This document shows positions 4,244-45,163 of a stretch of DNA of 64,000 nt, piece by piece (the first letter of the stretch is position 1; the number at the start of each line of letters is the position of its first letter). Source of the DNA: an uncultured Eubacteriales bacterium (lineage in GTDB: Bacteria > Acidobacteriota > Aminicenantia > Aminicenantales > UBA4085); contig CAZIDN010000006.1 of the NCBI GenBank assembly GCA_964537875.1, forward strand, positions 30,874 through 94,873, in the 5' to 3' direction. The notes beneath the pieces were generated by a model. It saw only the letters and a program-made list of their open reading frames with translations. It had not been told where the DNA came from and searched no databases. The translations under genes and the position numbers were made by a program.

Positions 4244-4957
4244 ATGACCATACACCTAGGGACGTCGGGATGGAGCTATCCGGGATGGAGCAGCCTCTTC
4301 TACCCCGAAGATCTCTCATCCAAAGACTGGCTGGATTTCTATTCCCGACATTTCGCCACGGTCGAGATCAACATGACGTTCTACCGGTTTCCTAAGCCCG
4401 AGACCTTGAGAGGCTGGATGGACAAGACGCCACCCCATTTCGTATTCACCCTCAAAGCCAACCGCCAGATCACGCATCTAAAAAAAATCAAGGATGTCTA
4501 CCACGAAGTCCGGTATTTTTACATTTTGGCTAATTCCTTGAAGGAAAAGCTGGGATGCATTCTTTTTCAGCTCCCGCCTTCGATTCGCTTCGACCTTCCC
4601 CTTCTCGAAGGATTTCTTGCGACGCTGTCTCCGGAATACAAGAATGTCATCGAGTTCCGGCACGAGAGCTGGTATCAGGACAAAGTCTACGAACTGCTTC
4701 GGTCCCATAAGGTCACGTTTTGCGTTGTCTCTTCGGCCAAAGTACCCCGGACTGTTGTCGAAACAGCGGATACGGCTTATTTTCGCTTCCACGGGCTGAC
4801 AGGGGAACACAGGCATAATTACTCCGACGACGAGCTCAAAGAGTGGGCGGAAGCGATCAAAACGGTCCAGGCGAAGGAATGCTTTATTTATTTCAATAAT
4901 GATTACCGCGCTTATGCGGTTGAGAACGCCAAAGTGCTGGAAAATTTGCTTCGCTGA
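4244..4957 (+). CDS. DUF72 (YecE-like) family protein
   Basis: Begins IHLGTSGWSYPGWSSLFYP, typical of the DUF72 N-terminus; 237 aa. Confidence 0.75.
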   Translation: MTIHLGTSGWSYPGWSSLFYPEDLSSKDWLDFYSRHFATVEINMTFYRFPKPETLRGWMDKTPPHFVFTLKANRQITHLKKIKDVYHEVRYFYILANSLKEKLGCILFQLPPSIRFDLPLLEGFLATLSPEYKNVIEFRHESWYQDKVYELLRSHKVTFCVVSSAKVPRTVVETADTAYFRFHGLTGEHRHNYSDDELKEWAEAIKTVQAKECFIYFNNDYRAYAVENAKVLENLLR

Positions 4958-5001
4958 CCAGCAGAACTAATACAAACGCAATAAATAAAGTGACAATGTA
5001 T

Positions 5002-5294
5002 GGGCGGCGCTTAGGCCGTCCTCAAGCCCCCGTAGCGGAGGGGGGCCCCGGACACTCTTGGAGGAGGACCCTTTCACAGGGTCCCCCTCCAACGGGCGGC
5101 GGGAATACCCGCCCGCCCTGCCACCCCTCCAAGGAGCATCCTCCCATGAATTCATCGCCAGATGCTCCTTGGAAAGGAGGCAGAGAGCGAAGCGATCGTT
5201 GGAGGGAAACCCTGAATAAGGGTTTCCCTCCAAGAGTATCCGACGGGACTGGTTCCCCGGGGCCCGGGGGCTGCGGGCGGCCTAAGCGCCGCCC
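5002..5294. repeat. Copy A of a ~290-bp highly self-complementary intergenic element (family of 5 loci)
   Basis: 17-bp terminal inverted repeat gggcggcgcttaggccg / cggcctaagcgccgccc. The interior is a chain of nested hairpins (ggagggaaaccc-loop-gggtttccctcc; ggagcatc...gatgctcc around GAATTC). It is the reverse-complement homologue of 13619-13902 with loop-only differences. The six-frame ORFs inside it are spurious. Confidence 0.8.
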
Positions 5295-5365
5295 GAACGG
5301 GGATGTCATTTTAATTATTACGTTGATATTAGTCCGAACATTCTAGACAACTTCGGAGGTTAACC

Positions 5366-11046: not shown

Positions 11047-12293
11047 TTATTCGTAGCGGAGGGCGACGATCGGGTCGAACTTGGCCGCCTTTTGGGCGGG
11101 AAAGATCCCAAAAAACAGGCCGACCGAGATCGAAACGAACAGGCCTAGAAACACCGACCAGAGACTCACCATGGCCGGCAGGGGAGTCGCCGCCTTGACC
11201 AGGAAGGCTACGGCGAAGCCGAGCAGCGTCCCCAGGATCCCTCCTATTCCGGTCAGGAACATGGATTCTATCAGGAACTGCTTCATGATATCGGTGGCGC
11301 GGGCGCCGAGGGCTTTGCGGATGCCGATCTCCCGCGTCCGTTCCTTGGCCGAGACGAGCATGATGTTCATGACGCCGATACCGCCCACGAGCAGCCCGAT
11401 GGACGAGATGACGATCATGACTATGTAGGCCGCACCCGTGATTTGATTGTAAAGGTCAAGGATCGTGTCCTGGGTGAAGATGGCGAAGTCGTTGGGCTTG
11501 CCGAAGCCGACCTTCCGCCGAACCCGGAGGACATTCGTGATCTGCTCGATCGTCTCCTGGATCGTGCCGGCCTGGCGGGGGATGGCCCCGATGCCGAGAC
11601 TGGAGGGGTCATAAGGATAATATTTCATCAAGGTCTTGATCGGGATGATGACGAAGTTGTCGCGGCTCTGCCCAAAGATCTCTCCTCTCTTTTGGAAAAC
11701 TCCGATGACCGTAAATTGTTCCGGCCCGATCCGGATGTCCTTGCCGAGCAGGCTGATATGGGGGAAGAGGATATCGGCGAGTTCAAACCCGAGAATGCAG
11801 ACGCGGCTGTTATGGTTGATCTCGTATTCCGTGAAGAACCGGCCCCCTTTGAGCAGTTCGATGGCATAGACAATCGGATATTTCTCATTGACTCCGATGA
11901 TAAAGGAACTGTCGCTTTTGTTATTTTGATACTTGATCTCGATCGAGCCGAAAATGCTCGGATTGAGGCTGACGGCGACGGCTTTGACCAGAGAGGCTTC
12001 CCGCTCGACGGCCATGGCGTCGTCATAGGTCAGGTCTTTTCGCTTCCGCTCTTCCTCGGTCCGGTCGCGCATCTGAATGGGCTCGTATTTCTGGACCAGG
12101 ATGAGGTCCGAGCCGGCGGATTCGAGCTCTTGGATGAACGACTTGTTCAATCCCTGAATGATCGAGACCATGCCGATGACGGTCATGACGCCGATCATGA
12201 TCCCGAGGAGCGTCAGGAAGGAGCGGAGCTTATGCGTTCTCAGGGAGTCTAAAGCCATTCCGAAAATCTCTTTGAGGATACCGTGCCTGACGA

Positions 12294-12297
<4 letters not shown>
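11047..12297 (-). CDS. ABC transporter permease, MacB/FtsX family (no fused ATPase)
   Basis: N-terminal TM + MacB-type periplasmic domain + C-terminal FtsX 4-TM bundle. The start ATG overlaps the upstream gene's TGA as ATGA (12294-12297). The 646-aa six-frame ORF is an artefactual 5' extension. Confidence 0.75.
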
Positions 12298-13529
<1,232 letters not shown>

Positions 13530-13618
13530 GTTCCAAGCTCAGTATTTTACACTATGATATACGGATAAGAGAAGAACTAGTTTTCTTGAGCTGGTATCTC
13601 TGTTTGTGTGATTTTCTA

Positions 13619-13902
13619 CCGGTGCCGGAAACGCCCTCTGGCCCCTGGGGAACCAGTCCCGTCGGATACTCTTGGAGGGAAACCCTTTTGTAGGGTTTTC
13701 CTTCCAACGGTCGCTTCGCTCTCTGCCTCCTTTCCAAGGAGCATCTGGCGATGAATTCATGGGAGGATGCTCCTTGGAGGGGTGGCAGGGCCGGCGGGTA
13801 TTCCCGCCGCCCGTTGGAGGGGGAACCTCGAAAAGGGTCCTCCTCCAAGAGTGTCCGGGGCCCCCCTCCGCTATGGGGCCTCGAGGGCGTTTCCGGCACC
13901 GG
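13619..13902. repeat. Copy B of the ~290-bp self-complementary element (opposite orientation to copy A)
   Basis: Perfect 20-bp termini ccggtgccggaaacgccctc / gagggcgtttccggcaccgg. The interior is collinear with the reverse complement of 5002-5294; differences are concentrated in hairpin loops (ttattcagg vs tttgtagg; tgtgaaagg vs tcgaaaagg). Lies 5' of the permease pair. Confidence 0.8.
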
Positions 13903-14013
13903 TAGAATACAACGCATTTGGAGGCGCTTCCTTTTCTTGACAAGAGGAGCGGAAGTGAACACAATGAAAGGGCCTTCAGGATGTTTATCCCTGACGGCGG
14001 AGGAGGAAGAGCG

Positions 14014-30266: not shown

Positions 30267-30363
30267 TTTCCAAGTTAGAACAATTGGCGAGCGACCAGGA
30301 GAGCTCCGGATATGCATCCCTGCAAGTGATTTCAAAGAGGCCTTGGCATTGCCCCTGAAGCCT

Positions 30364-30424
30364 CCATAGCGGAGGGGGGCCCCGTCGAATTCTCGACGGG
30401 GGGAACCGACGGGACTGGTTCCCC
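30364..30424. repeat. Copy D: about 60-bp miniature derivative of the self-complementary element
   Basis: atagcggaggggggcccc ... gacgggactggttcccc are the two ends of copy A joined by a perfect ccccgtcga-ATTC-tcgacgggg hairpin (GAATTC core). Confidence 0.6.
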
Positions 30425-30536
30425 AGGAGGCGCAGGGGCAATGCCAAGGCCGATTGGAAATCACGTGACCGGAAATGCTTTCCAGGCCCCCGAAGTCTTT
30501 GAAAAAAAATGCCCGTTATGGTATAAGGAAAAAGAC

Positions 30537-34730: not shown

Positions 34731-35515
34731 TTGCGGGATCAGGGGGATTTCCCCTGGAGGCGCTCGAGGAAGCGACGCGGCTGGGCTATGCCTGCGTTGT
34801 CGCCGGACTCCGGGGCGAGGCTGTCCCTGACCTGGAAGCCAAAGCGGAGACCTTCGCTTGGTTCGAGCTGGGGGACATCCAGAAGCTCGTGTCATTTTTT
34901 AAAAAGCAAGACGTCCGGGACGTGGTGATGCTCGGCAAGGTCGATCCTCGGGCCATCTACACCAAGCCGGGCTTGGACGATGCGGCCGGGCTGGTCCTGG
35001 CCTGGGTGAGGGACAAGACTCCGACATCGCTGTTCAAAGCGCTCATTGAATTCCTCGAGGGGCAGGGAATTTCCGTCAAGGATCCCTCGTTTCTCCTCCA
35101 AGCGTATTTTTATCCGGAGGGCGTGCTCACCGGTGGCCCACCGGCGCCGGATGTCCTGGGGGACATTGATTTCGGATGGAAGATCGCCAAGACCATTGCC
35201 GACCTGGATCTCGGGCAGACGGTCGTCATCAAGGACCGGGTCGTCGTGGCCGTGGAAGGCATGGAGGGCACGGACGAGACGATCAAAAGGGGAGGACGGC
35301 TGGCCGGAAAGGGCATCGTCGTGGTCAAAGTCGGCCGTTCCGCCCAGGATATGAGGATCGATGTCCCGGCCGCCGGGATTGAAACCCTGAGGAATCTGGT
35401 CAGAGTGAAAGCTGCGGCCCTCTGTATCGAAGCCGGCAAAGTGCCTCTTTTCCAGAAGGACGAAGTCATCACCTTGGCCAAGGCCAACGGCATCGCCGTG
35501 ATCGTAAAGAAATAA
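34727..35515 (+). CDS. lpxI: UDP-2,3-diacylglucosamine hydrolase LpxI-like (DUF1009)
   Basis: ATGA overlap with the lpxA stop; N-terminus MIAGSGGFPLE... and the DUF1009 pattern; 262 aa. Confidence 0.55.
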   Translation: MIAGSGGFPLEALEEATRLGYACVVAGLRGEAVPDLEAKAETFAWFELGDIQKLVSFFKKQDVRDVVMLGKVDPRAIYTKPGLDDAAGLVLAWVRDKTPTSLFKALIEFLEGQGISVKDPSFLLQAYFYPEGVLTGGPPAPDVLGDIDFGWKIAKTIADLDLGQTVVIKDRVVVAVEGMEGTDETIKRGGRLAGKGIVVVKVGRSAQDMRIDVPAAGIETLRNLVRVKAAALCIEAGKVPLFQKDEVITLAKANGIAVIVKK

Positions 35516-35520
35516 CGAGC

Positions 35521-35705
35521 GGTTCCCCGTGGCAAGCCACGGGGAACCGCTCGAGAGGGATCCAAGGGGGAGTCGCCCCCTTGGTCGCAGGGCGCGGGTT
35601 CATGCCTCGCCCGAGAAGGGGAGGCAGGGCCGCCGGGTGTTCCCGGCGCCCGTTGGAAGGAGTCTTCCCCTCCAAATTGGCGCTTCGGCCCAGGCCGGTT
35701 GTAGA
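35521..35705. repeat. Copy E: divergent hairpin-chain element related to the repeat family
   Basis: Perfect hairpins ggttccccgtgg-caag-ccacggggaacc and ccaaggggg-agtcg-cccccttgg. Shares a 40-nt block with the family (ggcagggccgccgggtgttcccggcgcccgttggaagg). The inner stem carries a compensatory CG/GC swap relative to copies B/A (GGCGGG...CCGCC vs GCCGGG...CCGGC). Confidence 0.55.
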
Positions 35706-44840: not shown

Positions 44841-44960
44841 CCCTTTATCTCCTCGTCGTCGATCTCCTGTTCAGCCGCGTTCATTTTATAATAAAAACGC
44901 CGGGAATTGTAGATTAAATGGGGAAACCTCTCGACAATCATAAAAGTCTGGATGGGACCT

Positions 44961-45092
44961 GTCAGACACTCTTGGAGGGAACCCCTTTATTTGGGTTTCC
45001 CTCCAACGATCGCTTCGCTCTCTGCCTCCTTTCCATGGAGCATTTGGCGATGAATTCATCGGGGTATGCTCCTTGGAGGGGAGAGTGTCTGC
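44961..45092. repeat. Copy C: about 130-bp derivative of the self-complementary element, in the 5' region of the M14 giant gene
   Basis: Own closing stem gtcagacactct / agagtgtctgc enclosing the central hairpins (ggagggaaccc...gggtttccctcc; ggagcat...atgctcc around GAATTC). Confidence 0.7.
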
Positions 45093-45163
45093 GGGGCAGC
45101 ATCCGCGCCACCCATCCAGGTTTTTAGCACGAAATCGAGATGCTTAGCTCGGCTAGCTTCCTA

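Follow-up and report, generated by a model that had tools for sequence, protein, structure and literature searches.

Five intergenic loci in the 64,000-nt stretch of DNA analyzed in this study (the window) carry copies or pieces of a strongly self-complementary repeat, and the genes bordering all five encode ordinary housekeeping proteins. Copy A lies between two co-directional genes at 4966-5333 (+) and forms a 368-bp complete composite, in which an inner core is enclosed by a second layer (layer 2) and an outer shell (shell A). Its left shell arm (4966-5019, +), conserved at 88-98% among 14 loci with or without the core, holds one half of an outer pair, gggcggcgcttaggccg (5002-5018), and its right shell arm (5272-5333, +) holds the other, cggcctaagcgccgccc (5278-5294). 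The left part of layer 2 (5020-5050, +; CCTCAAGCCCCCGTAGCGGAGGGGGGCCCCG) is common to shell-A elements, to elements with a second shell (shell B) and to core-less short forms. It is followed by the inner core (5051-5239, +), which comprises two TTGGAGG..CCTCCAA hairpins, a GGCGGCGGG/CCCGCCCGCC hairpin and a central GAATTC palindrome, and then by the right part of layer 2 (5240-5271, +), which starts with CCGACGGGACTGGTTCCCC. The 14 shell-A copies agree up to TAATACAAACG...CGTTGATATTA and diverge outside, and on the left side the homology of 95%-identical relatives (L148-L151) to the window ends exactly between 4965 and 4966. Element ends given here are accurate to 1-2 nt.

Copy B (13590-13931, −) is a 342-bp complete shell-B element with its core in the orientation opposite to that of A and an outer pair formed by ccggtgccggaaacgccctc (13619-13638) and gagggcgtttccggcaccgg (13883-13902). 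Its 9-bp target-site duplication could be read directly as TTTTCTTGA on both sides, at 13581-13589 and at 13932-13940, the right-hand copy overlapping a -35-like TTGACA at 13937-13942. Copy C (30308-30483, +) is a 176-bp short form made of shell B and layer 2 without the inner core; its left target, AGAGCTCC (30300-30307), has a right counterpart (30484-30491) that has decayed to AGGCCCCC. Copy D (44948-45119, −; 172 bp) contains a partial core only, equivalent to positions 93-246 of A, inside a wrapper (GGGTGGCG.../...GACAGGTCCC) with its own closing repeat, CTGGAT/ATCCAG. The remaining locus is a 44-nt core fragment (35617-35660; 86% match to A 5085-5128) within a hairpin-rich spacer (35516-35680, −), which is flanked by a stop codon at 35515 and then by a GFO_IDH_MocA gene whose domain starts well downstream.

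When the window was compared with itself, A (5017-5271) aligned with B (13633-13889, reverse complement) at 93% identity along 257 nt, in agreement with the first-pass annotation, which had described the two as collinear for about 250 bp in opposite orientations. The two different outer pairs that it reported are likewise present in the sequence as perfect inverted repeats. It had also taken 5002-5294 and 13619-13902 to be full-length copies, which they are not: conserved sequence runs 36-39 bp past these ends in A and 29 bp past them in B, and the true elements occupy 4966-5333 and 13590-13931. Copy A is self-complementary over its whole span (4966-5333), as judged against its own reverse complement, and is predicted to fold into a rod on both strands (-231.9 and -247.5 kcal/mol; z = -18 and -16 relative to shuffles); a long rod is likewise predicted for copy B on either strand. 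Together, the sequence comparison and the fold z-scores indicate that the original observation of a multi-copy, strongly self-complementary intergenic element is genuine and well outside what chance would give. Open frames inside the elements are limited to ORFs of 88-118 aa, which traverse the GC-rich palindrome on both strands.

Further copies are plentiful outside the window. A 23-nt core word was found at 27 loci in two Candidatus Aminicenantes MAGs, an 18-nt word was found at at least 120 metagenome loci, mostly in freshwater and sediment samples, and a blastn search with A, the kind of wider search that had been proposed at the outset, had hits at 159 places, distributed over 122 of 148 sources. 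The comparison drew on about 150 copies from genomes and metagenomes of Candidatus Aminicenantes. Since the loci were retrieved with core words, core-less shells are under-sampled in this collection, and many of the loci come from related populations and were de-replicated by their flanks only. As far as our literature search reached, no such repeats were found described for this uncultured phylum. Nearly all copies are intergenic (126/128), and 5 of 68 lie between convergent genes as compared with 103 of 561 gene pairs in the background, as scored by a crude ORF caller with the elements masked. It was also observed that the insertions sit just upstream of -35 boxes and mostly adjoin promoters.

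Lining up the flanks of all copies revealed a layered architecture. The core, approximately 190 bp long, has a mean pairwise identity of 94.8% among 40 copies, and one and the same core recurs within at least three unrelated shells that differ in their terminal repeats as well as in duplication length (8 bp; 5 bp; none or TA). Layer 2 adds approximately 30 nt on each side of the core and also occurs core-less, closing on a small hairpin, in copy C of the window, in L023 and in five shell-A short forms; the short form has 21-23 nt that are absent from the long form. Shell A was found at 14 loci at 88-98% identity, nine of them long and five short. It ends in TAATACAAACG/CGTTGATATTA, and the GGGCGGCGCTTAGGCCG pair that had been regarded as its terminus lies inside it. 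The termini of shell B have the consensus G(T/G)AAGCATCTCC ... GGAGATGCTT(A/C)C among 40 aligned copies, and its full consensus is G(T/G)AAGCATCTCC-aaatatGTGATTTCAAAGAGG-[NNNNGGN]ATCGCC ... GGCGAT[NCCNNNN]-CCTCTTTGAAATCAC-...GGAGATGCTT(A/C)C. A third shell has 17-bp ends, CCCAAAATTGCCGATAG/CTATCGGCAATTTTGGG, and copy D and its relatives carry a further wrapper with closing repeats specific to each copy. Because the interior is shared while the outsides differ and are separately conserved, the outer pairs of A and B, previously interpreted as termini that covary between copies, are simply parts of two separate shells, represented by 14 and 40 aligned copies, respectively.

The flanks of the elements bear the marks of transposition. 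Among 29 de-replicated shell-B copies, 18 carry direct repeats right next to the termini that agree at 7 or 8 of 8 bases, where 0.75 would be expected (random re-pairing of left and right flanks, 200 trials, maximum 4); the duplication is 8 bp long and sometimes 9 bp. Perfect 5-mer repeats flank 7 of 16 copies of the third shell vs. 0.47 expected, and for shell A no long duplication was seen, only a possible TA. Presence and absence of an element could be compared directly at the site of copy C. In L159-L162 (85-96% protein identity), 18-77 nt separate the ABC-ATPase gene from bamA, and the site is empty, with a single target copy, AGAGCTC(T/C)G. The site is filled in the window by the 176-bp short element and in L158, a 98% relative, by a long core-containing element flanked on both sides by AGAGCTCC(G). 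In the case of copy A, the DUF72 gene was traced to homologs on ten contigs, and no clean empty site was found among them; on all ten, homology is lost precisely where the element begins on its left side, and different genes follow downstream, which places copy A at a synteny breakpoint. The elements are thus small (170-370 bp), multi-copy and bounded by conserved terminal inverted repeats, with no internal transposase gene; shell B and the third shell have target-site duplications, and the B/C type has filled and empty sites with a single target copy in the latter. The earlier view that the ends are not transposase-recognized terminal inverted repeats is contradicted for the B/C type by these conserved terminal repeats and duplications.

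The IS66 family is characterized by terminal repeats starting GTAAGCG and by 8-bp direct repeats (PMC11946415; PMC12888890). With its GTAAGCATCTCC-type consensus ends and 8-bp duplication, shell B could be an IS66-family derivative; because no full-length partner was found, we only infer this link. No autonomous partner with matching ends was found in 1.2 Mb of retrieved loci, and no transposase domains were detected among 20 window proteins. A fuzzy search for shell-B ends returned only pairs 150-550 bp apart, and nothing credible was seen among GTAAGC...GCTTAC pairs 0.9-4.5 kb apart with matching ends.

Conservation of the elements increases from the outside inward. Among 40 copies, pairwise identity was 56% at the tips, 76% in the inner arms, 88% in layer 2 and 95% in the core. 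The tips are diverse while many target duplications are still perfect, which argues for many shell lineages carrying one core as opposed to decay in place. Variants also differ at fixed sites. The site of copy B is occupied in L106, L033 and L134 as well; in L106, a 92-98% relative, the core is inverted, the inner arms are different and an additional third-shell insertion is present, and in L134, an 80% relative, the ends and target are the same and the interior is D-like. At the C site, the short form of the window and the long form of L158 differ in their arms too. At the D site, the ortholog L014 has the same form as the window, and in L066, whose flanks are 82-89% identical, the place is taken by a full third-shell element. 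Shell A of L055 encloses layer 2 in inverted orientation, and the core was found in either orientation within one shell or site. One possibility is that homology-directed repair or gene conversion transfers interiors from copy to copy, the inverted arms permitting either orientation. Alternatively, sites may be shared because integration is so precise that one site is hit repeatedly.

Keeping these observations in mind, we consider it very probable that the feature originally noted corresponds to the inner 290 bp of a non-autonomous DNA transposon (a MITE) 368 bp long, one of a superfamily of palindromic MITEs with a nested, rod-forming structure, which is abundant in Candidatus Aminicenantes. 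This reading accommodates the layering, the terminal repeats, the target duplications, the filled and empty sites and the intergenic location. It is weakened by the negative search for an autonomous partner in the 1.2 Mb of retrieved loci and the 20 window proteins, by shell A, for which no long duplication or clean empty site was found, and by the bias of the sampled loci. DDE transposases encoded at other places in the genome would mobilize the elements in trans, and homology-directed repair or gene conversion would swap and flip the core and inner arms among copies. Such an exchange of interiors would account both for a core that is more uniform than the tips and for the differences between variants at orthologous sites. 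The arm complementarity of shell B, described below, would be maintained in the DNA itself, through hairpin-templated or arm-to-arm correction or because a foldable element is selected for, as in REPINs, and selection on a functional RNA would not be needed to explain it.

The original interpretation was that conserved pairing with non-conserved sequence reflects selection on a folded RNA, and some features of the elements do lend themselves to a structured non-coding RNA or a cis-acting RNA rod whose pairing is selected for. The predicted folds are extremely stable, hairpin loops are variable and stems conserved, and copy A, located between co-directional genes, would be co-transcribed. Pairing is in fact kept without sequence in the inner arms of shell B, where changes on both sides were seen in 13 of 17 pairs, giving 84 both-side-change cells vs. 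23.6 ± 3.9 after shuffling (0/500 shuffles as high). All five measures of these arms exceeded all 500 shuffles, slid controls collapsed, and the signal was concentrated in a 6-7-nt patch between constant blocks, with at least 14 different perfect pairs. This hypervariable complementary patch counts against the MITE reading, in that no demonstrated DNA-level mechanism explains it in detail. However, compensatory changes in hairpin arms are documented in a DNA mobile element, the REPIN (PMC3116915), and with this precedent the covariation of shell-B arms does not by itself imply RNA. The larger alignment recommended earlier as a check of covariation left the core unsupported: in 46 diverse copies (77-98% identical to A) the score was 0.064 vs. 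0.060 ± 0.003, and 51 of 500 shuffles were as high, so that pairing without sequence does not hold there. The core hardly varies in the 40 shell-B copies; in the central hairpin, pairing breaks where the left arm varies (76% of cells paired).

Nor do the elements show the asymmetries expected of an RNA. Over the arms, G·T mismatches numbered 93 and A·C mismatches 98. An apparent G·T excess (49 vs. 25) among RNAalifold-chosen pairs was traced to two recurrent one-state columns and to the program's acceptance of G·U; with the three paired columns dominated by one recurring state removed, the counts were 17 and 13. Orientation relative to co-directional genes was also unbiased (16 same vs. 18 opposite), and both strands fold equally well. 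A search of the whole window against Rfam 15 gave no match at gathering score, in accordance with the earlier remark that no named ncRNA family could be matched, and at E ≤ 1 only sub-threshold microRNA-hairpin noise was seen around A. Neither a terminator-like site nor a promoter-like consensus site was found in A or B. Moreover, many truncated copies in the blastn set start at the palindrome center, which fits breakage of a DNA palindrome better than selection on RNA, and terminal repeats, target duplications and empty sites are those of a DNA transposon. Taken together, these results make a selected RNA fold very unlikely. The interpretation first offered is therefore mostly not supported; what stands of it is a multi-copy, intergenic and strongly self-complementary element, together with the pairing kept without sequence in the inner arms of shell B.

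A different possibility, which we regard as rather unlikely, is that the core, together with layer 2, is a separate mobile hairpin module that invades the centers of unrelated MITEs by a non-DDE mechanism, candidates being insertion into the tips of hairpins in single-stranded DNA or copy-in during gap repair. The occurrence of the same core in at least three shells with differing ends and duplication lengths, the existence of shells without it, its presence in either orientation within a shell or site, and its uniformity (95% vs. 56-76% in the shells) would all be in keeping with such a module, as would the C site, core-less in the window and core-containing in the 98% relative. However, the long and short forms do not differ by a clean insertion, given the 21-23 extra nt of the short form. 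The arms at the C site differ too, and replacement of the whole element or independent insertion explains that site equally well. Finally, no target duplication or enzyme specific to the core was found. In an extended and equally tentative version of this idea, the core of approximately 190-250 bp might be a hyper-parasitic hairpin cassette that spreads among MITE centers, or might be kept because a rigid rod draws the ends of the MITEs together and boosts mobilization. The composites would be delivered approximately 8-10 bp upstream of -35 boxes, so that the same site would be repeatedly hit or re-filled, and the arm patch would be a by-product or a specificity element of a hairpin-dependent process.

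Two other alternatives were considered. In the first, a REP-associated tyrosine (HUH/Y1) transposase working on single-stranded hairpins would move REPIN-like units; such units would share with the present elements their long hairpin-forming doublets, compensatory arm changes (PMC3116915), intergenic location and persistence of variants at orthologous sites across 80%-identical lineages. Nevertheless, the elements are nested modules of 170-370 bp and not doublets of ~20-nt REPs. Furthermore, target duplications of 8 bp and 5 bp accompany shell B and the third shell, respectively, and Y1 transposition of the IS200/IS605 type is not known to produce these; a REPIN-like origin is accordingly highly improbable. 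It is scarcely plausible that the elements are invertible regulatory switches (invertons) with the variable arm patch as the crossover region of a recombinase. The occurrence of interiors in both orientations at one site, the proximity of most elements to promoters and a constant-variable-constant arm layout resembling recombinase sites would be in line with this idea. Against it, A and B contain no promoter- or terminator-like signal, no recombinase gene is nearby, and flipped copies differ in their arms as well, which replacement fits better than simple inversion.

The family is therefore one of composite nested MITEs and not an RNA gene, and the apparent signal of a covarying RNA reflects a patchwork of transposon shells built around one common core. 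Elements of this sort should be masked or modeled before searches for structured RNAs in these genomes. They also illustrate with unusual clarity how MITEs evolve by modules in an uncultured phylum, with one core residing in shells that need different transposases. Of particular interest are the shared core, the inside-out gradient of conservation, the way variants replace one another at fixed sites and the location close to promoters, and if the core were independently mobile or enhanced mobility, this would bear on the origin of MITEs and their palindromic form.

Comparison with known systems puts these features in perspective. The terminal repeats of shell B, which begin GTAAGC, and its 8-bp direct target repeats resemble those of IS66. 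Unlike IS66, the shell-B element contains no transposase genes, and no full-length partner was found in the retrieved loci; the seventh base of its ends is A as opposed to G, and the ends vary (GTAAGC or GGAAGC). REPINs are similarly palindromic, intergenic, multi-copy and persistent at their sites, and they set a precedent for arm complementarity that is preserved by compensatory changes in mobile DNA (PMC3116915). In contrast to REPINs, the present elements have terminal repeats and 5- or 8-bp duplications, are several times longer, and are modular and nested. With regard to the exchange of variants at a site, transposon replacement and targeted gap repair are established in the P element of Drosophila, where abortive gap repair gives rise to internally deleted elements. 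The P element offers an analogy in that a resident copy is swapped for a member of the same family at the same site, with the same duplication and in either orientation, and in that internally shortened derivatives arise; as it is a eukaryotic cut-and-paste system, the analogy is for mechanism only.

Close parallels are the hairpin-folding bacterial MITEs, such as the Correia elements of Neisseria, ERIC/IRU of enterobacteria, RUP, Nezha and Chunjie. Such MITEs are 100-400 bp long, non-coding, multi-copy and intergenic, and they bear terminal inverted repeats as well as target-site duplications; each is predicted to fold over its full length into a stem-loop and is often co-transcribed with neighboring genes. 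The elements described in this study are alike in size, multi-copy intergenic setting, terminal repeats, duplications and stem-loop fold. In a typical active MITE family, however, the terminal repeats would not be the least conserved part, as they are here (56%), and this reversal counts against the MITE reading. What further distinguishes the present elements from these hairpin-folding MITEs is that they are most conserved at the center and least at the tips, and that they share one core over at least three shells with different ends and duplications.

The left end of copy A, the palindromic element at 4966-5333 that adjoins the DUF72 gene, coincides with a change in gene context. When the window was compared with the loci of DUF72-gene homologs (L148-L157), homology to a 95%-identical relative was found to stop exactly at 4965|4966, and the gene downstream is an acetyl-CoA hydrolase in the window vs. 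DUF6305 or an aldo-keto reductase in relatives. Since homology ends at the element's tip and the downstream genes differ, copy A marks a rearrangement breakpoint. Past the DUF72 stop codon, the relatives carry a different short repeat (2223-2400 in L148), which comprises two similar units, gccacggcgcaacgcgccccgcaatgacaggg and gcggcgcaaagcgccttgcatgacaggg, next to partly palindromic sequence (gaattcggggaca...tgtccccgaattc). It appears to represent a further family of small repeats in these genomes.

At the ortholog of copy B in L106, a close relative, a third-shell element (4353-4579) occupies the left end of the copy and has taken the place of its left tip; the interior of this third-shell element differs and contains no core match. 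This is an example of insertion of one element into another. In the window, a 127-nt direct repeat with 79% identity (11302-11428 and 12552-12678) lies within or between two adjacent minus-strand ORFs, 11047-12987 and 12294-13529, the latter encoding MacB/FtsX permease domains. The repeat probably reflects paralogous tandem genes and has no relation to the element. The spacer at 35516-35680 begins immediately past a stop codon with a perfect 18-bp hairpin, CGAGCGGTTCCCCGTGGC aa GCCACGGGGAACCGCTCG (35516-35553). A second hairpin comes next, ahead of the core fragment, a 44-nt match to part of copy A. This arrangement may be what is left of a composite element after decay, or a palindrome in its own right.

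Within the core, the TTGGAGGGAAACCC...GGGTTTCCCTCCAA hairpin was examined in alignment A2, where its 7-nt loop (window 5213-5219; columns 109-115) is nearly random among copies, whereas its 14-bp stem is almost invariant, with 97% of cells paired. Both sides have changed in only one of the 14 stem pairs, and the contrast between stem and loop in this alignment yields no evidence of covariation. Evidently, either the hairpin is important or its stem undergoes correction, whether as DNA or as RNA.

The distribution of copies among genes is uneven: divergent gene pairs are enriched for them (29/68 vs. 92/561 gene pairs), and convergent pairs are depleted (5/68). A further tendency, seen in the flanks of shell-B and third-shell elements in loci L001-L147 and the window (13932-13942 and 30484-30503), is for elements to lie immediately upstream of outward-facing, −35-like TTGAC hexamers. 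An outward-facing hexamer occurs within 60 nt of 14 of the 60 shell-B ends and 15 of the 32 third-shell ends, and an inward-facing one at only 2 of the 60 and 1 of the 32, respectively; the background is 6%. Distances from element end to hexamer cluster at 13-16 nt, equivalent to the target duplication plus ~8 nt. In the window, TTGACA at 13937 overlaps the target duplication of copy B, and a promoter-like TTGAAA-17-TATAAG of bamA starts 14 nt past copy C.
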